64,000 nt of DNA from Bacteroidota bacterium (GCA_031385005.1 JANNBB010000026.1:151478-215477); one strand, 5' to 3'. Counted from the first letter of the stretch, positions 139 through 46,300 are shown. A program made the numbers and translations. Notes: a model not told the origin generated them from the sequence alone.

Positions 139-2619
139 TTGAAAAGAAACACAAGATTACGGCTAATCCTTTTTTTCTTTTTGTTCGGTTTCAGAATAGC
201 ATCCGCACAATATGCTATTGGGGATTACGGTTCACTTTCTTCCGGTAATTGGAATGGTACAATTTGGGGAACATGGAATGGTGCCGGATGGACAGCTGTT
301 GGTACATTTCCATCCTCATCAAAGAATACTTTTATTTTAGCCGGCACAACAGTAAATGTGCCAACCGGAGGTCCCTGGAGTTGTCAGGATCTAACAGTGG
401 AAGCAGGTTCCAAATTATGGACAACGAATAGTGGCACAAACGTATATATTTACGTCTATGGCTTCAATTTTATTTGCAATGGACAAATTGGAGATGGTGC
501 AAATTTCGATGGTATTTCTTTTGGAATTGAAGGAACCAATTGTACCATTAGCGGAAACGGACTTTTTGATTCATCGCGGATGCGAAAAAACCTAACAACT
601 CCTATTACCAATCTAATAATTAATATGAATATTAATTTACGATGGAATGCAGGTTCTGGAACTCAACTTTATAATGCTGCGAATAATACAAATTTCAATG
701 TTACTATCAATCCATTCTGTACTGTCAACTTAGTACCTAACGGTCCTAACATTGGTAATATTTGCATTGATGGATTAGATGGAACAGGAGTCGCCTTAGA
801 AGCAGGTGGAACCTACACAATAAATGGCACATTAATTATTTCCGGTAAACTTTACCTAACAACGAATAATACAAATACTGTATACGGTTGTAGTTGGATT
901 ATAAACGGGCTTGTACAAGCAACAGAAATTGTTGCATCAAACAGTGGATTTGGAGGGCACGGACTTTACATCAATTCCGGAGGAAAACTTGATATTACAG
1001 GAACAGCGGCCTTTAGTTCTTTAGGTGTAACCAACAATTCATATACATTTAACTTAGGAAGTACTGTTGAATATTCTGCCGCAGGAACACAAATCGTTCG
1101 AGTAAAATCAGAATTTGCAGCGGTTCCAACAGTAAGTCAGGAATATGGCAATCTGATTCTTTCCAACTCCGGATTGAAGTCTACCACACTTTCGGGATTA
1201 TATGTTAAAAATGATTTGACAATTTCCGGAGCAGCAGTTTTAGACCCGAATCCTACAGCATGTTTAATTTTTCTTGGTGGAAATTGGTTGAATTACAATG
1301 CAACAGGTTTTGCTGAGAAAACGACTACAGTTTATATTAATGGTGGAGGAATTCAGACTATAAGCTGTCCGGGAGGAGAAGTTTATAATATTTTAAGATA
1401 TCAGAAATCAAGTTCTTTTTTACAATTCAATAATCCCGTCGATGTGATAACTCAACTTGTATTTGCAAGTGCAGGTTATGTTGACCTTAATTCAAATGCG
1501 CTGACTGTAAGAAACTCATTAACTACAGGAATTGCGGGAGCATCCAATTCCCGATATATACTTTCAGAAAAAACAGACAACAGTTCTAAAATTATTTGGA
1601 GAATTAATACCGGTACCGGAACTTATACATTTCCGTTTGGTATTCCACCCGGACTGGCAGCCAACTATATTCCTGTTGTCGTTAGTAAAACAAGTGCAAC
1701 ATCCATTGGAGATCTTTCAATAGCTACTTATGGAACACCGCCTGACAATCTACCTTGGCCAACTACACCAACAAATGTAACTAACCTGAGAGCTTATTTC
1801 GGAATTTATAACGCACCTGACAACAGACATTGGACAGTAGATAGATATTGGGAAATCGGATCAACAAGTCCAACGCCTTTAAACTCTCTAACATTTAATT
1901 ATCGCACTTCGGAGTTGCCGGATCTGGATCCTACACCTACTAACCTAGCTGCTCAATTTTGGGCAGGAGCTTTCAGTGTGTGGAACCTGATTCAATACGG
2001 AACAGGGGTTGCCAATAACGTAACAGTACCAACTTTTTCTTTTTACAATACGTCATGGACACTGACAAGTTTGACTTCGCCACTTCCTATAGAATTACTC
2101 AGCTTTACTGCTTCACCTGACGACAATTCGGTTCGCTTAAACTGGGAAACTTCCGCTGAAATCAATAATGAATATTTTACCATTGAAAAAAGCACCGGTA
2201 ACGGTGAATTTTTCGAAATCGGTATATTGAACGGTGCAGGCAACAGCACTACCAAAAACGAATATAAGCTAATTGACAACCATCCTTTTTCAGGAATTAA
2301 TTATTACAGATTAAAGCAAACTGATTTCGATGGTAAATCAACTTACAGCGATGTTGTGGCCGTTGATTTCAAAAAAGGTTTGTCAAACTTTTCTGTTTTT
2401 CCAAATCCTGCATTTGAAAATGCTTTTCTGATCAATGAGAAAGAAAAAGAAGCCGAAGTATTTATCCGTACCGTTTCCGGAAAACTAGTAAATCATCTTG
2501 CTACAACCGGAAAAAACAAAACCACTACTCTATCCTTATCTGACCTGACGCAAGGGATATATATTTTAGAAATAAAATCGGAAAATGAAACACAATTTTT
2601 GCGATTAATAAAGCAATGA
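139..2619 (+). CDS. Secreted protein with canonical T9SS type-A C-terminal sorting domain (Por_Secre_tail-like), unknown function
   Basis: 826-aa ORF with an N-terminal signal peptide (MKRNTRLRLILFFFLFGFRIASAQ). The last ~75 aa (FSVFPNPA...GIYILEIKSENETQFLRLIKQ) match the type-A T9SS CTD pattern. A ~95-aa LPIELLSF...YYRLKQTDFDG..YSD module precedes it, at roughly 2083..2370. Confidence 0.8.
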   Translation: MKRNTRLRLILFFFLFGFRIASAQYAIGDYGSLSSGNWNGTIWGTWNGAGWTAVGTFPSSSKNTFILAGTTVNVPTGGPWSCQDLTVEAGSKLWTTNSGTNVYIYVYGFNFICNGQIGDGANFDGISFGIEGTNCTISGNGLFDSSRMRKNLTTPITNLIINMNINLRWNAGSGTQLYNAANNTNFNVTINPFCTVNLVPNGPNIGNICIDGLDGTGVALEAGGTYTINGTLIISGKLYLTTNNTNTVYGCSWIINGLVQATEIVASNSGFGGHGLYINSGGKLDITGTAAFSSLGVTNNSYTFNLGSTVEYSAAGTQIVRVKSEFAAVPTVSQEYGNLILSNSGLKSTTLSGLYVKNDLTISGAAVLDPNPTACLIFLGGNWLNYNATGFAEKTTTVYINGGGIQTISCPGGEVYNILRYQKSSSFLQFNNPVDVITQLVFASAGYVDLNSNALTVRNSLTTGIAGASNSRYILSEKTDNSSKIIWRINTGTGTYTFPFGIPPGLAANYIPVVVSKTSATSIGDLSIATYGTPPDNLPWPTTPTNVTNLRAYFGIYNAPDNRHWTVDRYWEIGSTSPTPLNSLTFNYRTSELPDLDPTPTNLAAQFWAGAFSVWNLIQYGTGVANNVTVPTFSFYNTSWTLTSLTSPLPIELLSFTASPDDNSVRLNWETSAEINNEYFTIEKSTGNGEFFEIGILNGAGNSTTKNEYKLIDNHPFSGINYYRLKQTDFDGKSTYSDVVAVDFKKGLSNFSVFPNPAFENAFLINEKEKEAEVFIRTVSGKLVNHLATTGKNKTTTLSLSDLTQGIYILEIKSENETQFLRLIKQ

Positions 2620-2654: not shown

Positions 2655-5600
2655 ATGAAAACACACTTATTGTCACCCACCTATCGGGCTAAATTTTTCT
2701 TTGGAAAAATTGTGTTGGCTCTCTTGCTACTTTTGAATCAAGAAGTAAAATCTCAAATTGCTGCATGGGATTTAACAGGTCAAGCTAGTCCGGCAACTTT
2801 TGCGGCTACAACATTTAATGCCAATCTGATTTCATCCACAGGGGCAAACAATATAACGCGAGGTGGCGGAGCCGCTTCAAGCACAGGAAGTAATTCATTT
2901 AGGACCACAGGTTTTCAGAACAATGGAATTGCTGTAACTAACACAGATTATTTTCAAATTACCCTAACCGCTAATGCCGGTTTCAATCTTTCACTCTCCA
3001 CTATAGATGCGAAATTTGCCGGTACTGCAACTTTTGCGGCAAGTCCCGGAGTTTCCAGTCAGTTTGCATATTCATTGAACGGAACAACTTTCACTTTGAT
3101 TGGCAGTCCAGCAGTTACGATTGGAACACCTGCAACATTACCTCAAATAATTTTAACGAGCATTACTGCTTTACAAAACGTTCCGGCCGGAACAACAATA
3201 ACACTTCGTTATTATGCTAGTGGGCAAACAACAACAGGCGGTTGGGGATTTAATTCTCCTTCTGCCGGAGCAAATGGTCTTGCAATTGGTGGAGCCGTTA
3301 ACCCTGCTGGATCAATAGCAACATTAGCAAACATCACTCAACCATCAGGACCGATAACTCAAGGTACTAACGATGTTGTTCTAGCAGGTTTTACATTGGG
3401 TGTAGTCGGAGGCAGTGCAAACTTTTCGACTGTAACGGTATCAAGTACAGGAACAGCGACATCAGCAGATTTATCGAATGTTAGAATTTACAGAGACAAC
3501 GATGCTAACGGAGCAATTAACGGTTCAGATGCAGCGGTAACTGTTTCCGCTCAACCCTATTCCGGTGCTATGGCATTTTCAATTACAGGGGAAACAGGAA
3601 TTACGACAACAAGAAATTATCTGATTGTCGGCGATGTTGCAGGAGCAGGTTTTTCTACAGTCGGGAATACGACAACTTTAAGTATACAAGCAGGCGGATA
3701 TGCCACGACAGCGGCAACTAATTCAGGAAGCGCCACAGGAAATCTTCGTACAATTGCTGCAGCCAATACACCTACGATTACTTTAACAGGATCTGTTGCT
3801 GCTTTTACCGGATTTGTGGGATCTGCGACGTATACAAAAAACTACAGTGTGTCAGGAATAAACCTGACAACGGCTATTGTAATAGTCCCACCGGTGCCAT
3901 TTGAAATTTCTCTTGACAGTATCAGCTGGACAACGAGTTCAGGTAGTATCAATCTTAGTCCTGTTGCTAATACAGTATCGAACACAATCATTTACGTAAG
4001 ATATAATCCTGTAACAGCAGGGAGCACCAGCAGTAACATTACACATAACAGCACCGGTGCAACGGTTCAGAATATGCCGGTTACCGGAACTGCTGCAGCT
4101 TCACCCGGTCCACTCTTATACTCAATTACAGGATCAACCTCTTTTCAAAATTTCGATGGACTTCCATTATCCGGAGGAGTATTAAATACAACAGGATTTG
4201 GATCGGGACCCGTTTATGTTGGATTAGCTCCGGTGAATGCAACCGGTGGAACCGGCTGGCAATATGCCAGAATAAGCGGATCAACAACAGATGTAAAGTT
4301 TACCGTAGATGCCGGAACTGCAACAAGTGGTTCGGCAATGAGTTATGGCTTAGCGAGCAATTCAGACAGAGCTCTTGGAACCTTATCTTCAGGAGCCAAT
4401 ACAGACAGGATTGGACTTGTATTAAAAAATAGCACTACCGACGTACTGACAAGAGTAACCATTACTTACGTTGGTGAGCAATGGAGAAATGGAGGAAGTG
4501 GACTTCCAAACAGGCTTGAATTTTCTTACTCTTTGAACGGGACAAGTATTTCTAATGGAACCTATTCCAAAATACCCTCATTGGATTTTTCATCACCGGT
4601 TACAGGAAATCCGGCAGCGAGTTTAAATGGCAATATTTCCCCAAATAGAACAACTATTACACATTCATTTTCGCTGAATGGTAATTGGCTTCCGGGTCAA
4701 TTATTGATTATAAGATGGGATGATATAGATGAGCCGGGAAGTGAAGATGGCCTCTCTGTTGACAGTTTTGCATTTACTGCACAAATTCCTATTGCACCTG
4801 GAATTCAAGACAACAACATTTCATTCCCATCGACTACCACATCTTCAATGAAAGTAAAATGGGTGAATGGCGATGGTTCTAATCACTTGGTGGTAATAAG
4901 TAACTCTCCAGCTGCTATTACGGCTCCAACAAATGGTGGTAGCTATACAGCTAGCTCAATTTATTCAGGATCAGGCGAACAAAATGTTTACATAGGTTCA
5001 GGTGATTCTGTAATTGTTACCGGCCTTTCTCCCGGAACAATATATTATTTTCAAGTATTTGGATTTAATGGATCAGGGTCAGCGTCCGTATTTAATACCA
5101 GTACAGCAACATTGAATCCGAATAACAATTCAACTTCTCCTTTAGTAGCGCCTACAAAACTTGTTATTACATCCGTTAATGGAGGTGTGTTTCCATATGT
5201 AAACCAGCCATTCAGCGTTGTCGTTCAGGCACAGGATAATTCCGGCAATCCTCAGCCCGTAATAGCTACAACAAATTTTGATTTAAGTGTTCAAGTTGGG
5301 ATTGGTACCCTGGCATCAGGAGTGTTTTCGGGAAGTATTGCAATAGGAACAACAACTGCTACCCTAACAGGAGTAATTTATGATCAAGTGGATAATGGAG
5401 TTCAGTTGCAAGCAGATGTCACTTCCGGTGATCCATTAACTGCCCAATTAAGTAATCCTTTTAATGTTTTGGATGCTGCAACTGCACTGAGGTTTGATAC
5501 AATTCCTTCTTCCGGAATACAAAACGTTACCATTTCTCACATTGTTGCCACCGCTATTTTAAGTGATTTATTGACAAAAGATATCGGGTATACAGGAGCT

Positions 5601-8600
5601 ATAACTCTTGCTGTAAATACAGGTCCTGTCGGGGGCACAATTACAGGAACCACCATGAGAAACGCTATTGGAGGTTCTGCCACGTTTAACGACATTCAAT
5701 TTACTTTGCCGGGTACGTATACCATAACAGCTTCTGCTTCCGGATTAACTCCTGTCACTTCTTCAAATATCATCATTACAGCTTTGCCAACTATGACAGA
5801 ACTTGTAGTGCCAAGGTATATCGGCAGTAAATCAACAGCATCAGCAAATGAGTGCAGGACACCACTCGCTATTTGCATTAGGTTAGACAACCTTTTACCG
5901 ACTACTACCTACAACATGTCTCTGGCACTTGGCGATATAGCCGAAGCTAATACCGTTTTAGGTGCAGGAACAATATGGAATGATACATCTTTTGCCAGTG
6001 CAAGTAATTATGGAGCATTCACGACAAACCCAAGTGGAAGTTCAGGTCCGGTTTGGGTTTTCTTCCAACCATCTGGCAACACTACCAGATTTGCAGCAGG
6101 TCAGATTCATAATATCCGCATTGCTTATTCGACAGGAGCATTAACCAGTACACCGAATTTTGTGGGGACAAAAACAATAACAGCGTTGGATATTCCTACA
6201 ACAGACTACACACCGGGAGTAACAACAGATGATGGAGCATTCTTAAAAGGAAGTTCCGTATCGTGTATCGGTGGAAAATTTGTGTTGGTTTACGATAATG
6301 TAAACGGAACCGGAGATCCTCTCTTTGCATATCAGGCAAGACAAGCAACTGCTACGGGAACCAATAATGGACAATTGCCAACAGCCATATCCAATGTGTA
6401 TAATCAAAATGCATCATCTGTCATTGGAGATTATGTTGCAGTGATTCCAATTGGCGCCAACAATCCAAACGGTGTTCGAAGAATCGAAATCAGAAACAGT
6501 GGCAATTCAGTTGTGAATTTCGCTTCAGATGCCGATGGTATCTGGCCAAGTGGTGCAAATACTACTACTATAGCTAGACGTGGAGTTGCTTCTATTACCA
6601 ATACGGATGCTTTTTTCAATACAGTATCTGTTGCAGCAACTTCTACAAATGCCAATTGTTTCGGAGCCCTTAATGGAACACTTATTGCAACAGCATCATC
6701 TACCTTTACTCCTATAACTTACTTATGGACACCCGGAGGGGCAACAACTGCTAACGTAAATTCAGTAGGGGCAGCAACATATACTGTTGTTGCGACTGAT
6801 GCAAATGGTTGTTCTGCTTCTTCTTCAACTACAATTAGTCAGCCATCACAAATAATTACTTCAGGAGCTGTAACCAACACAGATTGTACTTCAAATATAG
6901 GTGCAATAGATCTTACGGTATCAGGTGGCAGCGGCGGATATTCTTATTCCTGGTCAAATGGTTCTACAATAGAGGACTTAAGTGGACTTGCCGGCGGAAG
7001 CTATTCGGTTACAGTTACAGATGCAGCTTTGTGTACGGCAACACAATCGTTTACGGTACTTACAATAAATACAACTTCCCCACTTACAATCACTGCTTCA
7101 CCTGCTGCAGTTTGCCCTGGCGGAACTTCTACCCTGAATGCAAGTGGAGCGGTAACTTATTCCTGGAGTCCTGCAACATACTTGAGTGGTACAAGTGGCG
7201 CTACTGTCACCTCTACTCCTTCTGCGCCAATTACCTATACCGTAACAGGTGTTGATGGTACCGGCTGTCAGAGTACAGGAACGATTTCTGTAGGAATTAA
7301 CACAGCACCGGTTATTAATGCCAGTGGGTCAACGACTATATGTTCAGGTCAATCGGTCACACTTTCTACAACCAGTGTCGGTACCTACTCATGGTCGAAT
7401 GGTGCAACAACACAATCTATTTCTGCCTCAAGTGCAGGTCAATATTCCGTAACTGTTGATTATGGAAGCGGATGTGTGTTAACTTCATCTGTCACAAACG
7501 TTGTTGTTAACAATTTCGTATTTACCGGAATATTATATTCTGAAAATATTGGTTCACCTGCCGCAACTACTGATGTTAATTCATATTTCGGTTGGCAGGC
7601 AACATCACCTGTTACTTATTTGAGCACCTCTACACTCAATCAGGCCGATGTAAGAACTACGACTGCATCTTCCGGTTATACGGGTGCAAGCGCCGGCGGA
7701 AATGTCTTCTTTGGAGTTTCCGGTGGAAATAGTAAAAACCTATTTATTTCAGGAATCAACACACAAGGATTTTCAACGAATACTCTAACATTCGGTTTGT
7801 TAAGGACAACCATAACAGCAGATCTGACTCTTGAAATAAGCACTGATGGAATAACTTTTACTCCATTAACTTATACTGCACCTCCAACTCAAAATGTTTG
7901 GGCACTTTGTACTGTGGGAGGAATACCACAGGCAAGTAATCTTAGAATAAAATTCTCTAAAAACAACAGTACTTCTTTCCGTTTAGATGATATAAAATTG
8001 ACCGGAACAACAACAACTGTTGATATTGCCGCAAGTGGTCCACTAATAAACTGTGGCGGAACAGGAATTACACTTACTTCCAATATTCCATCGGGAAATG
8101 TCTGGTCTTATAATTCTTCAACTGCTAAGTCATTATCTATTTCTGCACTCGGGCCTTTTTCGACTACTGTTACCGCAACCGGCTCTAATGGTTGTACGTT
8201 AACATCGGCAGTAATTTCCGGACAAATTAATCCGAGCCCAAGTGTTGCCATTACTTCTACGACAAACGTTGCTTGTTTTGGAGAATTAAACGGAAGCGCA
8301 ACAGCATCTGCCTCCGGCGGAACAGGAACATTGGGATATTCCTGGAATACAAGTCCTGTACAAACAACTCCTTCAATTACGAATCTAGCAGCAGGAACTT
8401 ATATTGTGACTGCTACTGATGTTAATGGTTGCACAGGAACTAATTCGGCAATTATTTCACAACCATCACAAATTTCAATTACAGTGGGAGTTAGTGATAC
8501 AGTATTATGCGAAGGACAATCGATTCTATTAAGCTCCTCAGGATCTAACTCGAAAGCATTTACCGCTTTAAATTCAACTCCGGTCAATATACCTGATAGT

Positions 8601-10289
8601 GGAATTACAGGAGTAACACCTGTTTCATCATCCGTAACGGTTTCCGGTCTGAATATTACAGGGCTTACAGCAGGGCAGATTGCCAATGTGAAAATCAACA
8701 GCATCACACATACCTATACAGGAGATCTTGTAATTAGATTGATTGCACCAGATGGAAGATATTTAACACTTGCTGCAAGAAGAGGATTGGGTGCTAATTT
8801 TGTGAATACTTTATTCACACCTTCAGCAACGACATTAATTTCTGCCGGCTCGTCGCCATTTACAGCAACATATGTTCCTGACACTGCAGTAGCTGCCGCA
8901 GCTGCTTTCAGTGTATTCGATGGTGTTAATCCAAATGGAACATGGTCATTACAAGTTTTTGATAGTGCATCTGTAGATATTGGTACTATCGATAGTTGGA
9001 GTATTACATTCTTGAACCCTCTATCCTATTCATGGACTTCTACTCCGGCGGGATTCAGCTCATCCGTTCAAAGCCCGGGTACAGTTACTCCTTCAACTCT
9101 TGGATTAGGAAACGTAACATATACAGCAACTGCAACAAATTCCTTTAATGGATGTTCGGCAAGCAATTCATTTACTGTTACTGTTAACCCGCTTCCAACA
9201 CCTACCATTACCGGAAATCTTAGTTTCTGCGCAGGAAACAGCACGACACTTGGGACCACATCAAGTTACAGTGGTTACATCTGGACAGGCGGATCTAGTG
9301 CTTCAACACTAACAGTTAATACAGGTGGAACATATGCCGTTACTGTTACCGATGTCAACGGTTGTTCCGGAACTCAATCTGTCGTTGTTACAGAAAATCC
9401 AAATCCGGTTCCAACTATTTCAGCAACGACTACACCTGCTCAAACCGGAAACCCAATTACTATTTGTTCCGGCGAATCAGCTATTTTGAATACCGATCAA
9501 ACATTTGACACCTACAGTTGGAATGATGGAATAAGTATAATTAGCACGAATCAAAATGTTACTGTTACGCCTACTGCAAATACAATCTATACCCTAACAG
9601 TAAGCAACAACGGATGTTCCGGCTCTGCAACATTCGAAATCGATGTAGTTACTTGTGGAGGAAACGTAACATTGAATGCAACGATGTATTTAGAAGGATA
9701 CTATGCTGCCAGCAATACAGGATTAATGGATAACTATGGGACAGGTGGATGTTTGTTTGTAAATTCAATATCCCTGAATTCAAATGATGTTGACACTGTT
9801 GAAATCAGTATGATGGATGCCGCTACTTATGCATTAGTTGATGCTCAAAAAGGTATTCTACAAGTTAATGGTTCCGTTAGTGTTACATTCAGCCCATTGG
9901 TAACTGCCGGAACAGCATATTATATCAGAGTAAAACACAAAAATGCTGTACAAACCTGGAGTGCAAGTCCGGTAATGACGAGTGCGACAACTACATATGA
10001 TTTCTCAACAGCAGTTACACAAGCTTATGGAAATAATATGGTTCAGACTCAGGATCTCTTGCATTGGGCATTCTATAGTGGCGACTTATCTGATGCTGGA
10101 TCTGCTACAATAGGAATTCAAGATGAAGTAATCGAATCACAAGATTATTCAGACATGGAAAATGCTATATTTATTACATTAGGTGGATATACTTTCGAAG
10201 ATATCACCGGTGATGGTGTAGTTGAATCGCTGGATTATTCTATATTGGAAAACAATGTGTTCTTTACTATCCAATCCCTGCATCCATAA
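2655..10289 (+). CDS. Giant (2544 aa) SprB-like cell-surface adhesin/repeat protein
   Basis: Uninterrupted 7.6-kb ORF with a signal peptide. It has multiple SprB-type repeats (C.G..G.I...GG.G.YSYSW.....L.AG.Y.V.V.D..GC), Ig-like modules, an internal proprotein-convertase P-domain, and a non-canonical C-terminal module shared with two other proteins in the window. Confidence 0.85.
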   Translation: MKTHLLSPTYRAKFFFGKIVLALLLLLNQEVKSQIAAWDLTGQASPATFAATTFNANLISSTGANNITRGGGAASSTGSNSFRTTGFQNNGIAVTNTDYFQITLTANAGFNLSLSTIDAKFAGTATFAASPGVSSQFAYSLNGTTFTLIGSPAVTIGTPATLPQIILTSITALQNVPAGTTITLRYYASGQTTTGGWGFNSPSAGANGLAIGGAVNPAGSIATLANITQPSGPITQGTNDVVLAGFTLGVVGGSANFSTVTVSSTGTATSADLSNVRIYRDNDANGAINGSDAAVTVSAQPYSGAMAFSITGETGITTTRNYLIVGDVAGAGFSTVGNTTTLSIQAGGYATTAATNSGSATGNLRTIAAANTPTITLTGSVAAFTGFVGSATYTKNYSVSGINLTTAIVIVPPVPFEISLDSISWTTSSGSINLSPVANTVSNTIIYVRYNPVTAGSTSSNITHNSTGATVQNMPVTGTAAASPGPLLYSITGSTSFQNFDGLPLSGGVLNTTGFGSGPVYVGLAPVNATGGTGWQYARISGSTTDVKFTVDAGTATSGSAMSYGLASNSDRALGTLSSGANTDRIGLVLKNSTTDVLTRVTITYVGEQWRNGGSGLPNRLEFSYSLNGTSISNGTYSKIPSLDFSSPVTGNPAASLNGNISPNRTTITHSFSLNGNWLPGQLLIIRWDDIDEPGSEDGLSVDSFAFTAQIPIAPGIQDNNISFPSTTTSSMKVKWVNGDGSNHLVVISNSPAAITAPTNGGSYTASSIYSGSGEQNVYIGSGDSVIVTGLSPGTIYYFQVFGFNGSGSASVFNTSTATLNPNNNSTSPLVAPTKLVITSVNGGVFPYVNQPFSVVVQAQDNSGNPQPVIATTNFDLSVQVGIGTLASGVFSGSIAIGTTTATLTGVIYDQVDNGVQLQADVTSGDPLTAQLSNPFNVLDAATALRFDTIPSSGIQNVTISHIVATAILSDLLTKDIGYTGAITLAVNTGPVGGTITGTTMRNAIGGSATFNDIQFTLPGTYTITASASGLTPVTSSNIIITALPTMTELVVPRYIGSKSTASANECRTPLAICIRLDNLLPTTTYNMSLALGDIAEANTVLGAGTIWNDTSFASASNYGAFTTNPSGSSGPVWVFFQPSGNTTRFAAGQIHNIRIAYSTGALTSTPNFVGTKTITALDIPTTDYTPGVTTDDGAFLKGSSVSCIGGKFVLVYDNVNGTGDPLFAYQARQATATGTNNGQLPTAISNVYNQNASSVIGDYVAVIPIGANNPNGVRRIEIRNSGNSVVNFASDADGIWPSGANTTTIARRGVASITNTDAFFNTVSVAATSTNANCFGALNGTLIATASSTFTPITYLWTPGGATTANVNSVGAATYTVVATDANGCSASSSTTISQPSQIITSGAVTNTDCTSNIGAIDLTVSGGSGGYSYSWSNGSTIEDLSGLAGGSYSVTVTDAALCTATQSFTVLTINTTSPLTITASPAAVCPGGTSTLNASGAVTYSWSPATYLSGTSGATVTSTPSAPITYTVTGVDGTGCQSTGTISVGINTAPVINASGSTTICSGQSVTLSTTSVGTYSWSNGATTQSISASSAGQYSVTVDYGSGCVLTSSVTNVVVNNFVFTGILYSENIGSPAATTDVNSYFGWQATSPVTYLSTSTLNQADVRTTTASSGYTGASAGGNVFFGVSGGNSKNLFISGINTQGFSTNTLTFGLLRTTITADLTLEISTDGITFTPLTYTAPPTQNVWALCTVGGIPQASNLRIKFSKNNSTSFRLDDIKLTGTTTTVDIAASGPLINCGGTGITLTSNIPSGNVWSYNSSTAKSLSISALGPFSTTVTATGSNGCTLTSAVISGQINPSPSVAITSTTNVACFGELNGSATASASGGTGTLGYSWNTSPVQTTPSITNLAAGTYIVTATDVNGCTGTNSAIISQPSQISITVGVSDTVLCEGQSILLSSSGSNSKAFTALNSTPVNIPDSGITGVTPVSSSVTVSGLNITGLTAGQIANVKINSITHTYTGDLVIRLIAPDGRYLTLAARRGLGANFVNTLFTPSATTLISAGSSPFTATYVPDTAVAAAAAFSVFDGVNPNGTWSLQVFDSASVDIGTIDSWSITFLNPLSYSWTSTPAGFSSSVQSPGTVTPSTLGLGNVTYTATATNSFNGCSASNSFTVTVNPLPTPTITGNLSFCAGNSTTLGTTSSYSGYIWTGGSSASTLTVNTGGTYAVTVTDVNGCSGTQSVVVTENPNPVPTISATTTPAQTGNPITICSGESAILNTDQTFDTYSWNDGISIISTNQNVTVTPTANTIYTLTVSNNGCSGSATFEIDVVTCGGNVTLNATMYLEGYYAASNTGLMDNYGTGGCLFVNSISLNSNDVDTVEISMMDAATYALVDAQKGILQVNGSVSVTFSPLVTAGTAYYIRVKHKNAVQTWSASPVMTSATTTYDFSTAVTQAYGNNMVQTQDLLHWAFYSGDLSDAGSATIGIQDEVIESQDYSDMENAIFITLGGYTFEDITGDGVVESLDYSILENNVFFTIQSLHP
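8590..9012 (+). other. Proprotein-convertase P-domain-like segment inside the giant adhesin
   Basis: Translation GDLVIRLIAPDGRYLTLAARRGLGANFVNTLF...NPNGTWSLQVFDSASVDIGTIDSWSITF matches the P-domain pattern (D....L..PDG....L....G.....F......G.W.L.V.D....D.G.L..W.L.F). No S8 catalytic motifs (HGT, GTSMA) were seen upstream in the protein. Coordinates are approximate. Confidence 0.55.
9660..10286 (+). other. Shared non-canonical C-terminal module (copy 1): beta-rich region plus two dockerin-like calcium-binding repeats
   Basis: The last ~208 aa (NVTLNATMYLEGYY...IQDEVIESQDYSDMENAIF...EDITGDGVVESLDYSILENNVFFTIQSLHP) are paralogous to the C-termini of ORFs 37395..52529 and 35595..37166. The region contains D-x-x-x-D-G-x-V-E-S-x-D-Y-S dockerin-like loops. 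Confidence 0.6.
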
Positions 10290-10748: not shown

Positions 10749-10967
10749 AATTTATGTATTTATTTCAACTAATAATTTTAAACTAATTTGTTTACATAAA
10801 ATTAAAAAAAGTATTATTCACATTAACAAAATAAAAAACAATCATACAGTCAATATATTTCAGAAAAATACTATTGAATTAATTCCTTTCAATAATTGTT
10901 CCAAACTACAATACATCATCTAACATTTGAATTAAAAAATTAAGTAAAAATTATTCCTAATCCTTCC

Positions 10968-14040: not shown

Positions 14041-14094
14041 TTGAAATTAATTTAATTTTAATATTAACCCGTATGAAAATGATTATTACGATTA

Positions 14095-14622: not shown

Positions 14623-14635
14623 GTTGATTGAGAGT

Positions 14636-15034: not shown

Positions 15035-15074
15035 AAAAAAAAATAAATGTAATTTGAGTCAATTCTAAAAAAAA

Positions 15075-15722: not shown

Positions 15723-15726
15723 TCAT

Positions 15727-35060: not shown

Positions 35061-35105
35061 TTTCCGGAAATCGACATCAACTCTATCCCCTACTCCTATG
35101 GCTAC

Positions 35106-35594: not shown

Positions 35595-37166
35595 CTAAGG
35601 TCTCGAAACAGCAATCTGCAATCGTGAATTATTTTCTACAAGAATGTAATCCGAATTCTCAATTAAATGATCGCCGTTAAGATCCTCCTTTAAATATCCG
35701 GTTGTAAACAATCTTGTTTTTGATTCGACCGAATTAAAATCAGAAATATTAAAAACTCCGTCTTGATTGATATCACCATTGTATAATGAGAAAGTTCCAT
35801 CGCCGGTAGCATAAAGTTGGTTTCCATAAGCTTTACCGATAGCATCAGTGAAAGAATAGCTAACCGACAAACTATTGAACAATACCGGTGATGTACTCCA
35901 CACCTCCAACGCACTTCGATGACGAACAACAAGGTAATAACTACCCAAAAAAATTGTAGGTGAAAAAACAAAGTTACCATATCCATTCACGTCTATTGTT
36001 CCCTTTACGCTTTGAACAAGTGCATGTTGTCCGGTGGTCGCATGAAGTTCCAAAGTAATCGAATCACATAACGTTGGATAATTGACTCCATTGATGACTG
36101 CCTGCATTACGCCCGTACTTTTATAATAACCTTGAATAAATACACGCAGATTTACTGTTACCGGAGATGTATTTCCACAAGTACCCGGAGCATTAAAAGG
36201 GGAGAACCATCTGACACAATCTTGTCTGTAGGCAGCCAGCTCTGTCAACTCCACATCCCGGCAAAGCCAGGCACTTACATGAGTACTATCGGAACATTTG
36301 GACATGATGGTAAATCCTTCAATGTTTTGGTTTCCTGTCGGATTAGAAACATAATACTCATTGTTCACAGTAAATTTCCGATCGCCACCTGTTACAATTG
36401 AGGAAGTAAGATTGGTGACTTCAATAAAATTACCCAAAGTATTGTGCAGTATATATAACAAACCGGTTGTCCTGTCAAATGAAAGTTCGCAACTTTCGCT
36501 TTTATTTGTTTTATATTTTCCAACATAAGCGAAATCGTTACTCAAGTTTGGATTGACATCGAATACCCATATATAGCCCTGATTCTGATGGGCGATAAAA
36601 AACAACCCTCCCAGCCCTTTAACTGAAGTATAAGGCAAACCGGAGGCCTGACTAATAAAACCAATGGCGGATAAAAAACTATCCGGCACGAAAGTTATTC
36701 CTTCCGGGCCAGTGTTTCCGGTGTTTGTCATGGGCGAGGGTGAAGCAACAATGTTCCATGATTTCGAAAGAGTGAGTGAAGAAAAATCAGCCGGATGTGT
36801 GTATTTTCTTATTTGATAATTGTCTTCATCGATTGTATAATATTCGTTAGCGCTTAAATTTACTTGTGTTATTCCTTCCGGACCTGCGGTATAAGATCGA
36901 TTAGCGATTTGAGCAAATGTATTCGTAGTAGTGTTTAACTGAAGGACACGTAATCCTCCATTACCATTTGAAACGTATAATCGCTTGGTAACTTCATTCC
37001 AAAATAGTCCGCTGATGTCTGTTAATCCGACGGGATCCATTACCGGAGTCAAGTTGACACCTGAAGTCCACGGAATGGAAGGCCATGCAGTTTGTGCTTG
37101 CACTTTAATGGTATATTGACAAAAGATACCAACAATAAATACTAGATATAATCTTTTCAATTGCAT
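35595..37166 (-). CDS. Secreted protein (523 aa): N-terminal beta-propeller/phytase-like region plus the shared non-canonical C-terminal module
   Basis: Signal peptide MQLKRLYLVFIVGIFCQYTIKVQAQ. Repeated GPEGIT motifs in the N-terminal part. The last ~188 aa (VNLRVFIQGYY...DINQDGVFNISDFNSVE...DLNGDHLIENSDYILVENNSRLQIAVSRP) are paralogous to the C-termini of both giants. The gene is divergent from the 5044-aa gene. Confidence 0.7.
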   Translation of the reverse strand: MQLKRLYLVFIVGIFCQYTIKVQAQTAWPSIPWTSGVNLTPVMDPVGLTDISGLFWNEVTKRLYVSNGNGGLRVLQLNTTTNTFAQIANRSYTAGPEGITQVNLSANEYYTIDEDNYQIRKYTHPADFSSLTLSKSWNIVASPSPMTNTGNTGPEGITFVPDSFLSAIGFISQASGLPYTSVKGLGGLFFIAHQNQGYIWVFDVNPNLSNDFAYVGKYKTNKSESCELSFDRTTGLLYILHNTLGNFIEVTNLTSSIVTGGDRKFTVNNEYYVSNPTGNQNIEGFTIMSKCSDSTHVSAWLCRDVELTELAAYRQDCVRWFSPFNAPGTCGNTSPVTVNLRVFIQGYYKSTGVMQAVINGVNYPTLCDSITLELHATTGQHALVQSVKGTIDVNGYGNFVFSPTIFLGSYYLVVRHRSALEVWSTSPVLFNSLSVSYSFTDAIGKAYGNQLYATGDGTFSLYNGDINQDGVFNISDFNSVESKTRLFTTGYLKEDLNGDHLIENSDYILVENNSRLQIAVSRP

Positions 37167-37394: not shown

Positions 37395-40300
37395 GTGTAT
37401 AGAAGATTTGACTTAAACATTACGAGCATTTTTATTTGGCAAATGTTTCTATTTGCTTTAATAAACGGTGCTTATGCTCAATCATCTTCCAACTATTCAT
37501 TCTCCACAAATAACAATGGATATCTAACAAGAGATTTATATTCGGATACGATTAACTTGAGCACAGGAGCTACACAACTAATCGGACCGGGCACGGATAG
37601 TGACATTTCTGATGAAACAACTATTGGTTTTGATTATTATTTTATGGGCACGAATATCAAAACATTTTCCTGCAATGAAAACGGAATAATTGAATTAGGC
37701 GCCCATACAATACCGGCTGATCTTTCGAAACCATCAACCTCGGCTATTCCAAATCTACTCGCACCGTTTGGTCAAAATCTACAAACAGGAATAGATGGCG
37801 AGGTTCGCTGTAAGTTATTCGGCACTTCACCCAACAGAGTTTTTGTAATTGAATATTTTAATATGATGATCAGCTTTGCCGGTGTTAATAATGCATTAGC
37901 AGGAGCAGCAACTTTTCAAGTACGTCTTTATGAAACAACAGGAATTTTGGAATACGTCTATGGACAGATGGCAACAAATAATAGCGTGCAAAATCTTATT
38001 CCTGTTGAAACAGGATGGATAGTCAATACTACTCCCAATAATTTTTTCGCTATAGACAGTTTATACAATACATCAACTATTGGAAATTGGCCAACATTTA
38101 TTGTCCCTCAGGGTTCAATTGTCAATCACCTAAATTCCATCTCTGAAGGGTCCAGAAGAATTTACCGATTTACTCCACCTCAGACGGCAGTTGTTGCGCC
38201 CACAGGATTATCTTTCTCGTCTGTGGCAGCGACTACAATGACAATAAACTGGACAGACAGCTCAACCAATGAGACGAATTTTAATATTTTAATTTCTTCC
38301 AATAATACCAATTTTTCCAAAATAAGCACCCTAAATTCATTCTCGACAGGAACGATAGGAACCGGATACAATTATACTGTAAAAGGCCTTTCTCCGAATA
38401 CAACTTATTATTTTCGCATTGCAGCAAATACTGAAGCGATTTCGTCTCCTTTGCTTGCCGGAACACGAGCGACCACAATACCAAAAGCTTATCATTGGAT
38501 AGGTACCGGAAATACTTTTTTCGAAGATCCTGCCAAGTGGAATCCAAATAGATTTACACCTGATCCAACAGACTCACTTTATTTTGATAATGGATTAAGT
38601 TCTACAATTAATTATGTTATTTCACAAAGCGTTTCGAAAATTGTAGTCAGTAATAATACACTCTTGAGAATGAATTCAGATGGAGGTGATACATTACTCA
38701 TAAGTGCAAAAATACCCAATGCATTTTTAATAGCCACCGGATCTTCAATTATCAATACAGCTCTTTTTCCTAATACCGTGACAATTTCATTTACAAACGG
38801 TAACGGCGCCACTGCAAGTATTTCCGGAACTCTTGAATTAGGAAAAGATAATAGCTACAATACAACTAATTGCATTACTTCAGTAAGTGGAACAATTGCT
38901 AATGCCGGAAATGTTTACGGTGCAACGAGAACCAATCTTATTTTTTTATCGACTGGTGTTTATAATCACAAATACAATGTTTCACCCGGAGTTGTTCCAA
39001 CAGCAACATGGAATATTGGCTCGCTTTGTTTAATAAGCGGATATACTGCCAATCCAAATATTTTGACAAGCTTGTCCGGACAACAATTTTACAACCTCAC
39101 CTGGGATTGTCCTGCACAACAGGTCTATGTAAATTTAGGAGGATTTTTTCCGGCCTCAGTTAATGGAACTTTTAAAATGGCAAATGGTTTACTACGACTT
39201 CAAACAAATGCTTCACCAACCTTAGTATTAAACAATTTCATTCAGACAGGAGGATCCTTCGATCTTAACAATGGAGGAGGAAGCTGCACGATGAAAGTGT
39301 CCGGTACATTCAATCAATCAGGCGGAATATTTGCTCCTTCTGCCGGGGGAGGATTGCCCATTCTCGAATTCAACGGAACAAGCGGTGTGCAACAAGTTAA
39401 CTTTTTCAACTCCGCTCCTACCGGTTCTTTGATTTATAAAATATCAAATCCAAACGGCATTAACCTGACAGGTACAGGAACACTTACAACCTATTTCAAT
39501 ATCAACATTAACTGTGGAGTCCGAATAGCAACAGTTGCAACTACTCCGATTAATACTTTCTTAAAATTAACTTACAATACTACTTCCACTACATTAACCT
39601 ATGAAGCACCTTCGGACATGACAATGACACCGACAGAATTTCCATTGGTAAGTGGTCCGGGAAATGTCTCAATCAATATGCCTGGAAGTGTCGCAAATAT
39701 GCCCTTCTCACGAGTAATTCCGGGCTCCTTGATAATGAGCGGAGGTGATATAAATTTAGGTGCAAACTCAATTACCCTTGGAACTTCATCAACTTTACCG
39801 GGAAACTTAAGTTGGGCTTCCGGCAATATTCGTGTTACGTCCGGTTCAATGACACGCTGGTTCAACACAACAGGATTACCAACTCAACCCGGATCACAAA
39901 TCGGGTTCTTCCCAATTGCGAATGGACTTGACAATCGTAATGTTTCTATTTATGGAACTTCACAGTTCATTACCGGTGGCTCCATTACTGTTTCGCATTC
40001 AAATGTTCCGGGAATTACAACAGGAATTTCCATTTCAGACCTGGGTTATATTATCCAGAGAAGAACAAATTCCTCCTGGACATTTGTAAATCGTGGAATA
40101 GTTAGCAATTTAAACTCTATTGGAATAAGAGTTACAGGAGCCAATCTGTTAAGCAGCAATTCACCGACACAACTTCGGTTAACACAAGCAAATTCGGTAA
40201 TCGGAGTAACTGCAAATGGAAGTGGCACAGCTCCTAATTTAAGAGCAGAAAGAATAAATATTCATTCGAATCAGTTATCTACAACATTATTTATTGGCGC

Positions 40301-43300
40301 ATCGGATACTCACCTTGATCCTTACTATGTAGCGACAACAAGCGGCAACTGGAGCAATCCTGCAATTTGGAGTTCAGGAATTGTCCCGGGATTAGCAAAC
40401 AATGCAATAATTGACTTGGGCACAGTAGTAACGACAGACGGAACAAATCAATGCAAAAGTCTAACGATTAATCCCGGCGGAACATTAAATGTCCCAAACA
40501 ATTCAATTTTAATTGATAATTCTCTAAGCAACAATGGAAATTTAAATGTTACAGGTGGTGATTTAATAATCAACGGAGGACAGCAAACTGCACAGGGATT
40601 CACAACAACGAGTGGAAGCAACACAGTCATATTATCCGGAACATTTACTATAGGCCCGCTTTTAGGAGGGAATAAACGATGGATACAATCTGGTGGCACG
40701 GCAACAATAGCAGGAGGAACAATTAATATAAACGGCAGTATATTAATTTCAGCAGGGAATTTTAATCAAACAAATGGCAATATTATAATCGACGGCAACA
40801 ATGGGACATCGGCTTCCGGAAGTGTTGCAAATGGGCTCCATTTGTTTCAGGTAACCGGGGGTACGCTTTCATGTAATGGTGGAACAATAATGATTGTTGA
40901 CCCTCCTTTTGTCGCATCAAAAAACAGTTTAGCAATTTCAATAAAAACTACAACAACAAGCACAAATGCCTTCACAGGAACACATACATTTATTTTTGGA
41001 AATGGAATTTCCAACACTGTTGGATATAATGTAACCGGTTTTTGCATGGAGACTTATTCATCTTCCTCAGGGGGCCGTGTTCCTCTAAAAAATGTCATTA
41101 TAAACTCCGGAAATGCATCAGGAAGATTTGTCAGAAACACATTAGTGAATACAAACGGTACACAAATTCAAGGAACATTAACTATTAATCCCAATTCAGA
41201 ATACAGGATTGCAACCAATACAATTAGTCGTGATTGTATCGGAGGCCACATAATCAATAATGGAACATTAACAGCAAGTGGGACACTTACGTTGGGAGGA
41301 GAAAATGGAATATATTCAATTTACAATCCACAAACGATTAGTGGAACCGGAGTTTTTCAAAATCAACAAATTTCGTCAACTGCAAATTTCTCCGGAATCA
41401 CTTTAAATAACCCGGGAGGAATTACATCAACTATAGGCAACATAAGCTATTCCGGTATATTGACATTCCAGAATGGAAATTTATCCTTTGGTAATAATAA
41501 AATTGAACAAATTGCCGGAGGAAGTATTGCCGGAAGTTTTGGCGCTTCCAGTCATATCAAAGGAAAGTTTCAACAACACACAAATACAGGTTCGTTTGTT
41601 CTTAATTTCCCAATTGGGGATAATCTAAACTACTCACCGGTTTCGATAATTGGAGCTGCCGGATCGGTTATTACACCCGGCGACATACTCGTTAGCACCT
41701 TTCCTTCAGAACATCCGTTGATTTCAACTGCAAACATAAATTCATCAAAAGACATTACACGACACTATACGCTTCAAAGTTTGAATGGTATTACATATAC
41801 TACGGGTTCACTAAGTGTAATACTTAATTGGACCAATTCTGATATCGATGCAGGAGCTAATACAACCAACTTCGTTCTTGGGAAAACAGAAAATGGCGGT
41901 TGGGTTTACCCTACAATAAAAAGCAAATCGGCAAACAACATTTATGTGACAGACGTTTCTTCACTTGGTGATTTTATTGTTGGAGAAAAATGTAACTTAA
42001 ACACCAACTTTAGTTATCCTAATTCCCCATATTGTAATAATGGAACTGTGACTCCACAATTTAATAATGGAGGAATTGCCGGTATTTTTACGGAACCATC
42101 AGGATTAGTATCAATTAATTCAAACACAGGAGTTATTAATCTTGCCTCCAGTACTCCCGGCACCTATATCATTACTAATACGATTGCTAACACCGGATGC
42201 CAACCGTCAAGCAGCACTGCCAACATAACCATCATTGGAAATTCAGTGGCTACTGTTAACATTACATCCTCTGCCAATCCAACATGCTCCGGCCTGCCTT
42301 TAACTTTTACTGCCGTTCCTGTAAATGGCGGTAACCCAACTTATCAGTGGCAATTAAACAATGTTAATGTCGGAACAAATAGTGCTGTATATACAAACTC
42401 CAATTTGACAAACGGAAGTATAATAAAATGTATAATGACGACAAGTCTGACTTGTGTTGCCGTTAACCAGGTTACTTCAAATATTCTAAGTATAACAGTT
42501 AACAGCACTCCGGCAGCACCAATTGTAACAATACTTGGATCCACAACAATTTCCTGCGGAGGGTTTGCAACACTTTTATCCAGTTATCAGGGAATTGGCA
42601 ATACATGGTCACCGGCAGGAATAATGAATGATACTTTAATTACAACAGCGGGAACTTTTTCAGTTACATATACAGACAGCAATAATTGCACTTCCTCTCC
42701 ATCCCTTCCTGTAATTATATCTCTTGTAAATCAAACAGGACCCTTGAATGGATCTTTTACAATAAACCCCGGCATAACCAGTTGCACCAATTACAATTCC
42801 CTTTACGCAATAATAAGTGAGTTAAATACAAGAGGTATAAATGGAACAGTAACAATTGATGTTCCATCAGGATATACTGAAACTGCACCATCGGGCGGAC
42901 TTCAAATTAAAATGTGTGGATTACCCGATTCAATACAGCCGAAAAACACGCAGTCAATTACTTTCAGAAAAACAGGAAGCGGAAGTAATCCATTACTTCT
43001 TGGAAACATTGGCAATTCTACTCAGGACGGAATCGTTAAAATTATTGGAACAGATTATATTACTTTTGATGGTATTGATGTCAATGATACAATGTCAACA
43101 GGTAATAGCGCATCACAAATCGAATGGGGATATGCATTGTTGAAATGTAATGGCACAAAGGGCTCCTCACATAATACCATTAAAAATTGCAACATATCTT
43201 TACAAAAATCAAATATATCGTCATCCGGGATTTATCTGAACAACCATACTGAACAATCGAATGTCCCTCTTATTTATTCAGGAAGTCAGGGATCAGATCA

Positions 43301-46300
43301 GGCATTCAGAAGCTCCTTTAATGTCTTCTCAGGAAATAGCATTTCCAATTCATATAGTTCTGTTAGTTTATCCGGATCCAATTTTTTCAATGACTCTTTA
43401 AACGAAATAGGAAAATCGGGTTCTTCACCCAATTTATTTTCGAATGTTGGTGGCGGAGTTTTTGCCACTTCAATTATTTCTGTAGCTAACCAACAACGGG
43501 TTAAAATAAATAATAACATTCTTAATGGAGGTGACGGTACGACCGGCGTTTTAAACGGAATCTTCGCCTACCCCAGCTCAGGATTTTCAGGAGATATTGT
43601 AAATAATTCCATTCGATTATCGAGTGCTTCTTCCGCAGTGAATGGAATAAATGGAATTAATATTTCAGACGGAACATTCGGTGATAGAATCAACATCACG
43701 GATAACATAATTGAAGATTGCAATTTTTCAATTGGCACAACCGCTGATTTTAATGCAATACTTTCATCATATAGCGGACCGGGAATTGTCGATATCAGCA
43801 GAAATAGCATTCGTAATAACAATCTGACTACCCCATCTTTCGGTTCTTTTACCGGCATCAATACAAGTGGAAGTCCTCAGACTTTGAATGTAGCTGCAAA
43901 TTCAATTACCGGAAACAACTTATCCGGCTTCGGAGTATTTAATGGTATCAATATTACTGACTCACTAAATCCGGTTATTGTTTCAGAAAATATAATTTCT
44001 TTCAATTACAAAACCGGACAAGCAGGAACCCTAAATGGAATATCAATTAATGCAGCGAATAGCCAAACAATTAATTCCAACATCATAAGTGAAAACGGAC
44101 TGCCTTTTTCAAGTGGGAACAACTCAGTTTTTATTTCAGGAATAACAGGAAATTTTGGAACAGGAAATGAAACAATTAACAGAAACAGGATTCGGAAATT
44201 ATTTATTTTAGGATCAAACAGCAGTCAGCAAGTAATTAACGGAATTCGTTATCATGACAATGCATCATCCCGCGAGATAAACAATAATTCAATTGACAGT
44301 CTATACTCTTTAAATAATTCAACAATAACAGGAATTTATTCAGGATTGGCACTAGGGACGGTAAATATTTCTGCAAATAAAATATTTGACGTTAATAGCG
44401 GTGGGGCATCTGCATCTGCTTGCGGCATACTTACGAATTATGCTCCGCAATTAGTTACAATATCAAATAATATTATTGGCCGACTTTATACTCCAACTTC
44501 TACAAATTCAAATGCGATAAGAGGAATGGACATCAGCGGAGCGACAAGCATACGCATTTATTATAATACAATTAATCTTGATGCAGTAGGCAACAATGTA
44601 TCTTTCGGAAGTTCCGGACTTTTTGTATTGTCAACTTCGCTACTAGATCTGCGTAATAATATTATCATTAATAATTCACTTCCAGGAGGATCTGCGGGCG
44701 CTGACGGAGTAACAGCAGCATTCCGCAGAAATAATTCAACACTTACAAATTACTCAAACTCTTCCAATAATAACTTATTTTATGCAGGAATTCCCGGTCA
44801 AAATAATGTAATTTATTGTGAAGGATTTGCAAACCCGGTTGTTAATGTAGCATCATCAATTCTGGATTACAAAGCAATATCTACACTTAGTCCGAGGGAT
44901 TCGGCATCCGTAAGCGAAAATGTATCCTTCACTTCATTGTCCGGAGCTGACTCGCTTTTTTTACACATCAACAACAATGGATTGACCTATGTTGAAGGAA
45001 ATGCCAAACCAATTAACGGATTTACCACAGATTATGATACTGAATTGCGAAATGTTATCAATCCGGATATCGGAGCTGATGAAGGAGGTTTTACCGGAAT
45101 CAGACCATCGATAGCCGTTGTAATTCCGAATCCCGGTACAGGGCAATGTTCTGCGGTTGCTCATACGATAAATGCAAACGTTATTCCCGGTTTAAATCCA
45201 ATAACTTCGGTGATTCTATCGTATTCTTTCGGGAGCGCCACACCCATCAATTTAAGCATGACTCATCTTTCCGGAAACAACTGGAGCGCAACAATTCCTT
45301 CGGCAAGTCCTTCCAATGCTGTAGTTAACTGGACAATTAACGCAACAGATGGAACTTATTCGCAAGTAGTATCCGGAAACTACCAAGATGAAATATATTC
45401 TCAGTATTCATTAAATATAAATGCAAGTACAACACCGGGAAACGTATGTTCATCGGGAACAACTCAACTGCTTGCTTCGGTAATTGGTACGGCAACAACT
45501 TCCAATACATATTGCCTACCCGCTCAAAACAATTCCGGAAACTGTATTTCAAATGTTGAGTTCAACACGTTAAACAATTCTTCTGGATCCTGTTTATCCA
45601 ACACTTATACATTGTTTCCTCAATCGGGATCAACTACTACGACTGTGGTATCCGGACAATCTTATCTTTTACTAACCACTAACGTTACCAATTCAATGAC
45701 ATGGGTATGGATCGATTTTAATGGGAATGGAATTTTTGAAACGGCTGAAGGGAAATTAATTTATGGTTCAGCAAGTTCCGGATTTACAACAATTTCCATC
45801 CCTGCATCAGCGGTAATTGGAGCAACAAGAATGCGAATACGTTCAACTATACCAAATGGAATTTTAAATTCAGCAAGCTCCTGTACTTCGATTACAACAG
45901 GCGAAACAGAAGATTATCTGATAAATATTATTCCTCCATTAACATATTTATGGTCGCCATCAAACGGATTATCGGATTCGTCGATTGCCAATCCTCTAGC
46001 GACAGTAAATGCGACATCTACATATTTTGTTTCTGCTTATGATAAATATGGATGTACACTTCCTTCATTAACAACTTCAATAAATATTCAAGTATTAACC
46101 CCGCCTACACCACCGATTGCAAACAATTCTATTCAATGCGGCACCGGAATCCCGCCATGTTCTGTAACCGGCACAGGCGTAAAACGCTGGTATTTGAACG
46201 ATTCTATTGTTAGTCCTCTATCCGGAGAAAGTGGAAATTTTTTAGTTGCTTATTCAATTAACACTACAAAGCATTTCTGGGTTTCTGTGTTTGATGGAAG

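Follow-up and report, generated by a model that had tools for sequence, protein, structure and literature searches.

A C-terminal X-module-like and dockerin module on giant secreted proteins of Bacteroidota and a candidate cohesin-fold partner

The window analysed here is the whole of a 64,000-nucleotide stretch of DNA from a Bacteroidota bacterium (GCA_031385005.1, JANNBB010000026.1:151478-215477). Its 26 open reading frames (ORFs) of at least 150 amino acids (aa) include the genes for three secreted proteins, two giants of 2544 and 5044 aa and a smaller protein of 523 aa, which share a C-terminal module consisting of an N-terminal beta-sandwich of about 140 aa and a divergent two-loop dockerin. 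An N-terminal signal peptide was recognized by eye in giant 1, and signal peptides were recognized in the same way in giant 2 and in the 523-aa protein. The latter is encoded on the minus strand, and its C-terminal module is therefore found at the low coordinates of the ORF, 35598..36161. The genes and the parts of the module are located as follows:

2655..10289, plus strand: giant secreted protein 1 (2544 aa), with SprB repeats, P_proprotein and fn3-like domains, then the C-terminal module
9660..10079, plus strand: module copy 1, X-module-like beta-sandwich (module residues 1-140), with conserved motifs LEGYY, DVDTV and H(R/K)NxxxTWS
10080..10286, plus strand: module copy 1, divergent dockerin (module residues 141-209), with the invariant terminal Pro at its end
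10083..10145, plus strand: copy 1, calcium loop 1, with a 9-aa insertion
10200..10235, plus strand: copy 1, calcium loop 2, canonical, DITGDGVVESLD
35595..37166, minus strand: 523-aa secreted protein, with a signal peptide, a region of about 310 aa (residues ~25-335) and the C-terminal module
35598..36161, minus strand: module copy 3, whole (residues 336-523 of the 523-aa protein)
35778..36161, minus strand: module copy 3, X-module-like sandwich
35598..35777, minus strand: module copy 3, dockerin
37395..52529, plus strand: giant secreted protein 2 (5044 aa), with fn3, GEVED, Laminin_G_3 and six Ig_7 (CHU_C-associated) domains, then the C-terminal module
51900..52526, plus strand: module copy 2, whole, with a loop-1 insertion as in copy 1
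51900..52319, plus strand: module copy 2, X-module-like sandwich
52320..52526, plus strand: module copy 2, dockerin

An alignment of the three C-termini covers 190-209 aa, and 54 of its columns are invariant. In pairwise BLASTP comparisons the module of giant 1 is 60% identical to that of giant 2 (E=7e-91) and 33% identical to that of the 523-aa protein (E=1e-28), and both alignments reach the last residue. A hidden Markov model (HMM) of the family finds exactly three copies in the window, those of the two giants and of the 523-aa protein. These results confirm the common C-terminal module that a preliminary description of the window, made from the nucleotide sequence, had proposed for the three proteins.

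Structure of the module

The AlphaFold2 model of the module, built on an alignment of 50 sequences, has a mean predicted local distance difference test score (pLDDT) of 83.9 and a predicted template-modelling score (pTM) of 0.73. Residues 1-140 form a beta-sandwich, mostly with pLDDT >90, which corresponds to the conserved beta-rich first part noticed earlier. This part of the window copies belongs to no Pfam or NCBIfam family. The sandwich is followed by two predicted helices, at residues 160-175 and 190-200 (pLDDT 60-70), one behind each calcium loop; the second half of the module has the repeat structure of a dockerin, in which two tandem repeats of ~22 residues each comprise a 12-residue calcium loop, with Asp or Asn at positions 1, 3, 5, 9 and 12, and then a helix.

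Twelve columns are invariant over the 50 family sequences. The calcium-ligand positions 1, 5 and 12 are occupied by the invariant residues D142, D155 and D162 in loop 1 and D181, D185 and D192 in loop 2, in agreement with the two dockerin-like loops originally read from the translations, and the terminal Pro, which marks the common tail end of the three proteins, is likewise invariant across the family. Both giants carry a 9-residue insertion in loop 1, located between positions 3 and 4. Loop 1 of the 523-aa protein is canonical (GDINQDGVFNISD), as it is in many homologues, and every window copy has a canonical loop 2; the two canonical loops of copy 3 are DINQDGVFNISD and DLNGDHLIENSD.

The only Pfam family matched by the window copies is Dockerin_1 (PF00404), with 17.5 bits for giant 1, 19.3 bits for giant 2 and 14.6 bits for the 523-aa protein, all under the Pfam gathering threshold of 22.9 bits. 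This threshold is exceeded by the homologous proteins P0041 (32.0 bits) and P0043 (25.7 bits), and 15 of the 27 family members scanned singly match PF00404 at E<=0.01. A sequence profile search of the PDB with the module returned dockerins only. The invariance of the calcium-ligand columns, the members above the PF00404 threshold and the restriction of PDB matches to dockerins identify the second half of the module as a divergent dockerin, which bears out the dockerin-like element of the preliminary description. It resembles type I dockerins of PF00404 in its two tandem DxNxDGxIxxxD loops with a helix each, in its usually C-terminal location and in the scores of the members that pass the threshold, but differs from them in the low scores of the window copies (14.6-19.3 against 22.9 bits), in its constant fusion to a conserved sandwich and in the invariant C-terminal Pro.

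Foldseek comparison of the module model retrieved X-module-dockerin (XDoc) dyads at ranks 1, 2, 4 and 6-9, that is, as seven of the nine best matches, with E from 1e-4 to 7e-3 (5k39_B, 4wi0_B, 5m0y_B, 4u3s_B, 2b59_B, 4fl4_C and 3kcp_A). The model shows the arrangement characteristic of such dyads, an immunoglobulin (Ig)-like beta-sandwich predicted directly N-terminal to the dockerin. Sequence homology of the sandwich to clostridial X-modules was not detected.

XDoc dyads of clostridial scaffoldins (CipA and CipB of C. thermocellum, ScaA of A. cellulolyticus) bind the type II cohesins of cell-anchoring scaffoldins. Like these type II dyads, the module has an Ig-like sandwich directly before a two-repeat dockerin and can form the C-terminal end of a non-catalytic surface protein of very large size; the dyads are its best structural matches by two methods, and in both cases the partner with a cohesin fold, a predicted one for the module, carries a cell-surface anchoring signal. 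Unlike in the clostridial dyads, the X part has no detectable sequence homology to them (12-15% identity over the structural alignment), its sandwich comprises about 140 instead of about 100 aa, and calcium loop 1 of the giants contains the 9-residue insertion. The hosts also differ, being Gram-negative Bacteroidota with adhesin-like rather than cellulolytic cargo, and the anchor on the cohesin-fold protein is a type A C-terminal domain (CTD) of a type IX secretion system (T9SS) rather than surface-layer homology (SLH) repeats or a sortase motif.

The relation of the module to the CTDs that address proteins to the T9SS was analysed with Pfam and NCBIfam models of type A (PF18962/TIGR04183), type B (PF13585/TIGR04131) and type C (ChiA-like, NCBIfam). 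None of them matches the window copies even at E<=1, and none was found on the 27 family members scanned singly. As a positive control, PF18962 was recovered on two other ORFs of the window, 139..2619 (44.4 bits) and 53899..58854 (38.6 bits). The earlier statements that the module is not a type A CTD, and that type A is present on these two ORFs, hold. The module resembles CTDs in its C-terminal position on Sec-exported surface proteins of Bacteroidota and in its content of Ig-like beta-sandwich, and resembles type B CTDs in particular in being placed after SprB and Ig_7 repeats. It differs from all three types in matching no model, in ending with helices and in its ability to be internal, tandem or located before a type A CTD.

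Distribution of the module and its cohesin-fold neighbour

A word-indexed search yielded 51 homologues. When 1.84 billion representatives were searched exhaustively with a profile, 12,187 matched at E<=0.001; 7,106 remained at E<=1e-10, and at E<=1e-30 the number was 3,115, a lower bound for the representative clusters of the family at 50% identity. Reference genomes contain at least 593 copies, and one metagenome-assembled genome (MAG) at least 12. The 77 best loci all belong to Bacteroidota, including Flavobacteriales, Chitinophagales and cultured isolates of Flavobacterium, except for one short contig in a MAG labelled as a cyanobacterium, which is probably mis-binned. The proteins that carry the module vary in length between about 260 and more than 6,000 aa.

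The preliminary description had raised the question whether the module is always C-terminal. This is the case for about 95% of copies, which are exactly C-terminal, nearly all strong locus matches ending 0-6 residues before the stop codon; a minority of homologues depart from an obligatorily terminal position that is never followed by another CTD. Internal copies are present in L009, P0065 and L079, and tandem copies in P0054 and P0058. In P0085, P0095 and L015 the module directly follows a signal peptide and is itself succeeded by a type A CTD with a plain PNPA motif. The tails of P0019 and P0027 match PF18962 at 19.8 and 20.7 bits, which is below the threshold, and P0076 and P0089 share this layout with a putative CTD as their tail. 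In view of the internal, tandem and pre-CTD copies, the module is best described as a mobile domain that strongly prefers the C-terminus, and not as an obligatory terminal tag.

A gene encoding a putative partner was found by clustering the ORFs that flank module genes, and is located directly downstream of them in related genomes. Its product consists of a signal peptide, a domain of about 170 aa, sometimes Ig-like repeats, and a type A CTD (58.1 and 38.4 bits on PF18962). The 170-aa domain has no Pfam match, and no Pfam hit beyond the CTD was obtained at E<=1. In the predicted structure it has the nine-stranded jelly-roll topology of cohesins. The next gene on the same strand encodes the partner in 10 of the 83 module genes with at least 500 bp of downstream sequence. 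In the reciprocal test, performed on seven partner proteins picked solely for their long contigs, a gene terminated by the module lies immediately upstream in all seven cases, with gaps of 15-173 bp. Examples of adjacent module and cohesin-like genes are those of L048 (Flavobacterium sp. XGLA_31), L057, L081 and L014, and CYK-55 is another cultured Flavobacterium carrier. The partner domain is also fused with a C-terminal module in a single polypeptide in 4 of 92 proteins (L028, L050, L051 and L044), and P0221 is an additional fusion of this kind. The suggestion that a dockerin-like element could dock to an unseen cohesin-like partner is thus strengthened by genomes other than that of the window, in which the cohesin-fold type A CTD gene adjoins module genes.

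The subtype of the dockerin appears to follow that of the cohesin-like domain. Loop 1 is canonical in each of the 14 modules whose partner is an A5-type cohesin, and the three modules with a loop-1 insertion (L014, L017 and L028) all pair or are fused with A6-type cohesins, for which the search returned six fragments only. On this pattern, the giants of the window would presumably recruit an A6-type cohesin, and the 523-aa protein one of another kind.

Several observations concern individual carriers and their surroundings. The protein encoded by L044 3857-10561 (Crocinitomicaceae MAG, JBIKNN010000007.1) is a scaffoldin-like protein of 2235 aa in which three cohesin-like domains occupy residues 69-215, 383-529 and 1646-1792 and an X-dockerin module forms the C-terminus; another cohesin-like gene begins just downstream. 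P0058 (1313 aa) begins with a signal peptide, which is followed by a tandem array of five or six divergent X-dockerin-like repeats, all with ...SPVYYW at their end; its tail resembles a type A CTD. This would correspond to the reverse polarity, with many plugs on one anchored protein. In L079 7325-11779 the module occupies residues 892-1079 of 1485, and the approximately 400 residues behind it contain, as read by eye, a DRGHQ motif of the kind typical for non-specific DNA/RNA endonucleases, and no evident known CTD.

A large subfamily of proteins of about 265-295 aa consists of a signal peptide, an N-terminal motif of about 50 aa and the module, with nothing else. The motif, ...S(L/F)(S/N)(W/F)T(L/I)GE...(L/I)TQGFQQP, has no Pfam match and in the fetched loci is confined to module proteins (9 of 9 regular-expression matches). 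Members of this subfamily are:

L001: 10001-10885
L012: 9773-10603
L058: 2967-3803 and 9719-10570
L060: 9749-10573
Further members: L054, L063 and L073; proteins P0008, P0015, P0017, P0024 and P0030

The small module protein of L001 (MAG GCA_031417395.1) is flanked by small secreted proteins (9108-9905, 10929-11384 and 14003-16105) with a common N-terminal 'INYQGVARNS...' region, some of them with Lcl_C or PTL_trimer domains. A cluster of Lcl_C type was considered as a conserved neighbour and rejected, being present in 14 loci with no fixed position beside the module gene; ATP-binding cassette (ABC) transporter ATPase-like and response-regulator-like genes are sporadic and likewise have no fixed position. 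KwaA and KwaB of the Kiwa anti-phage defence system are encoded in L082 (330-1819) about 3 kb upstream of a module-cohesin gene pair, which is probably coincidental.

Neighbouring genes in the window

The gene upstream of giant 1 (139-2619, plus strand) codes for an 826-aa type A CTD protein and stops 36 bp upstream of the start of giant 1, in what resembles an operon. For the N-terminal ~750 residues of this protein no family match was obtained, and hhalign gave no similarity to the cohesin-like domain. Giant 2 is separated from the next type A CTD gene by a 1.37-kb stretch (52530-53898) with a single plausible small ORF (53000-53422, plus strand), the 140-aa product of which is hydrophilic and lacks a signal peptide. 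PorP/SprF-like proteins or another partner were also considered among the flanking genes of the giants, which proved to be housekeeping genes or to encode type A CTD proteins.

Residues ~25-335 of the 523-aa protein have no Pfam or NCBIfam match. Recurring GPEGIT / IEGFT-type motifs in residues 1-335 (36162-37166, minus strand) suggest that this region may adopt a repeat or propeller-like fold. An ORF for a 227-aa protein with a GIY-YIG nuclease domain (34695-35378, plus strand; PF01541, 62.4 bits) is located beside this gene and overlaps a 197-aa ORF on the minus strand (34487-35080), the two occupying the region 34487-35378.

A possible docking system and competing explanations

The evidence obtained, which comprises homologous modules, folds predicted for module and partner, linkage of their genes and fusions of their domains, is consistent with a cohesin-dockerin plug-and-socket system of Bacteroidota that mounts giant adhesins and other cargo on the cell surface, an explanation that we regard as fairly probable. 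The module would act as a two-part docking unit, an Ig-like X-module sandwich fused to a calcium-binding two-repeat dockerin. Judging from their N-termini, the three window proteins would be exported across the inner membrane by means of Sec signal peptides. Their C-terminal dockerin dyads would then bind, presumably in a calcium-dependent manner, to a cohesin-fold receptor domain of another protein. The putative receptor in related Bacteroidota comprises a signal peptide and a predicted cohesin-fold domain, with or without Ig-like repeats, and the full-length ones end in a type A CTD, which implies that the receptor itself would be exported by the T9SS. Like other proteins with a type A CTD, it could then be fixed to the cell surface, and large adhesins and other cargo would thus become mounted non-covalently on the outer surface. 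Proteins combining several cohesins with a dockerin, or carrying tandem dyads, could give rise to higher-order assemblies; the scaffoldin-like proteins, the cohesin-module fusions and the proteins with a CTD behind the module are suggestive of networks or chains.

Several points weigh against this explanation. The dockerin part of the model is of only moderate confidence (pLDDT 60-70), and the Foldseek alignments with XDoc structures have high root-mean-square deviations. The partner domain has no sequence match to the Pfam Cohesin family (E<=1) or to cohesins of the PDB (E<=10), and its assignment as a cohesin is based solely on the predicted fold. Only about 12% of module genes have a cohesin-like neighbour and about 88% do not. 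The correlation between dockerin and cohesin subtypes is drawn from few cases and could be confounded by common descent, and the A6-type cohesin proteins of L014 and L017 are cut at the C-terminus by the contig end, any CTD on them being putative. In the window, no cohesin-like domain was found in any ORF by HMM and profile-profile (hhalign) comparison, which extended to the N-terminus of the 523-aa protein and to the ORFs 139..2619 and 53899..58854; the sole match of the cohesin-like profile was CTD to CTD. The partner of the three proteins must accordingly be encoded elsewhere in the genome and is hypothetical. The way in which proteins that lack a CTD cross the outer membrane is left unexplained by the cohesin-dockerin model.

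One alternative is that the module represents a new, fourth class of T9SS sorting signal, read directly by the secretion system, its resemblance to dockerins being incidental or secondary. ChiA provides a precedent for an atypical CTD (PMC10202324), and such a signal would agree with the exactly C-terminal location of about 95% of copies and their invariant final Pro, with the signal peptides and T9SS-cargo domains (SprB repeats, Ig_7) of carriers that have no known CTD, with the occupation of the usual type B CTD site, and with the confinement of the 77 genome loci to the T9SS phylum Bacteroidota, bar the short, probably mis-binned contig. However, the genuine type A CTD behind the module in P0085, P0095 and L015 would be redundant for a sorting signal, sub-threshold type A matches follow it in P0019 and P0027, and copies in L009, L079, P0054, P0058 and P0065 are internal or tandem. 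Internal copies retain the terminal Pro, which accordingly behaves as a feature of the domain, not as a C-terminal tag. In addition, the extreme C-terminus is a helical dockerin, whereas known CTDs use beta-strands, and the tight linkage to a cohesin-fold gene would remain unexplained. The alternative T9SS CTD class, the other option raised in the preliminary description, is not supported, in view of the internal, tandem and pre-CTD copies in a minority of homologues, and this explanation is unlikely.

The linkage itself could reflect piggy-back export, in which a cohesin-fold type A CTD protein binds the dyad in the periplasm, carries the CTD-less cargo through the T9SS and stays attached to it outside. 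In F. johnsoniae, sprB followed by sprF forms a cargo-plus-helper pair for a type B CTD, and the arrangement of module and partner genes mirrors such pairs. The module proteins have no CTD, the operonic partner always has one in full-length cases, and the short intergenic gaps of 15-173 bp are consistent with co-expression. Against such a route, an adjacent partner is found for only ~12% of module genes, fusions of cohesin-like domain and module that lack a CTD (L028, L050) would still be without an export route, and hitch-hiking through the T9SS is without precedent in the review of T9SS effectors (PMC10202324). The wider proposition that cohesin-fold CTD proteins serve as both export adaptors and anchors, hitch-hiking being a fourth way of addressing T9SS cargo, is as doubtful as a new sorting signal, and piggy-back export in the specific form given here is slightly more doubtful than either. 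The module could instead be a calcium-dependent end-domain with a structural, self-association or carbohydrate-binding role and no cohesin, the cohesin-fold neighbours being merely co-regulated surface proteins. This would fit the majority of module genes, which have no cohesin-like neighbour, and the dockerin- or EF-hand-like loops that occur without a known partner in many non-cellulosomal proteins, as Peer and colleagues reportedly described in 2009 (cited in PMC8542988). It is at odds with the reciprocal gene linkage in 7 of 7 cases, with the repeated fusion of cohesin-like and module domains and with the tracking of cohesin subtype by dockerin subtype, and is the least likely of the explanations considered.

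A full-text search of the literature, in an incomplete collection, revealed no account of this module or gene pair in Bacteroidota. The nearest published idea found is the prediction for 'Ca. Stygibacter' of the Cloacimonadota of a cellulosome-like system of dockerin enzymes and a cohesin scaffoldin with a T9SS-type CTD (PMC8542988). Both systems belong to the FCB (Fibrobacteres-Chlorobi-Bacteroidetes) group and combine dockerin cargo with a cohesin protein, here a predicted one, anchored via a T9SS CTD. The Cloacimonadota system was, however, detected with the standard cohesin and dockerin models of InterPro, and its cargo consists of hydrolases, while in the present case Pfam has no model that matches the sandwich or the cohesin-like domain, giant adhesin-like proteins are the cargo, and often one module gene is followed by one cohesin gene.

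The review of T9SS effectors distinguishes CTDs of types A, B and C only (PMC10202324). The evidence presented here points to an additional widespread layer of Bacteroidota surface biology beyond these types, with a module and a partner domain that current domain libraries do not recognise as families of their own. If the proposed docking system is real, cohesin-dockerin assembly would extend from Gram-positive cellulosomes to the display of adhesins by Gram-negative bacteria, thousands of 'hypothetical' C-termini would gain an annotation, and new orthogonal cohesin-dockerin pairs would be available for protein engineering. The exit of very large CTD-less proteins from the periplasm would also become directly testable, an experimentally feasible question since cultured Flavobacterium isolates carry the module-cohesin gene pair.

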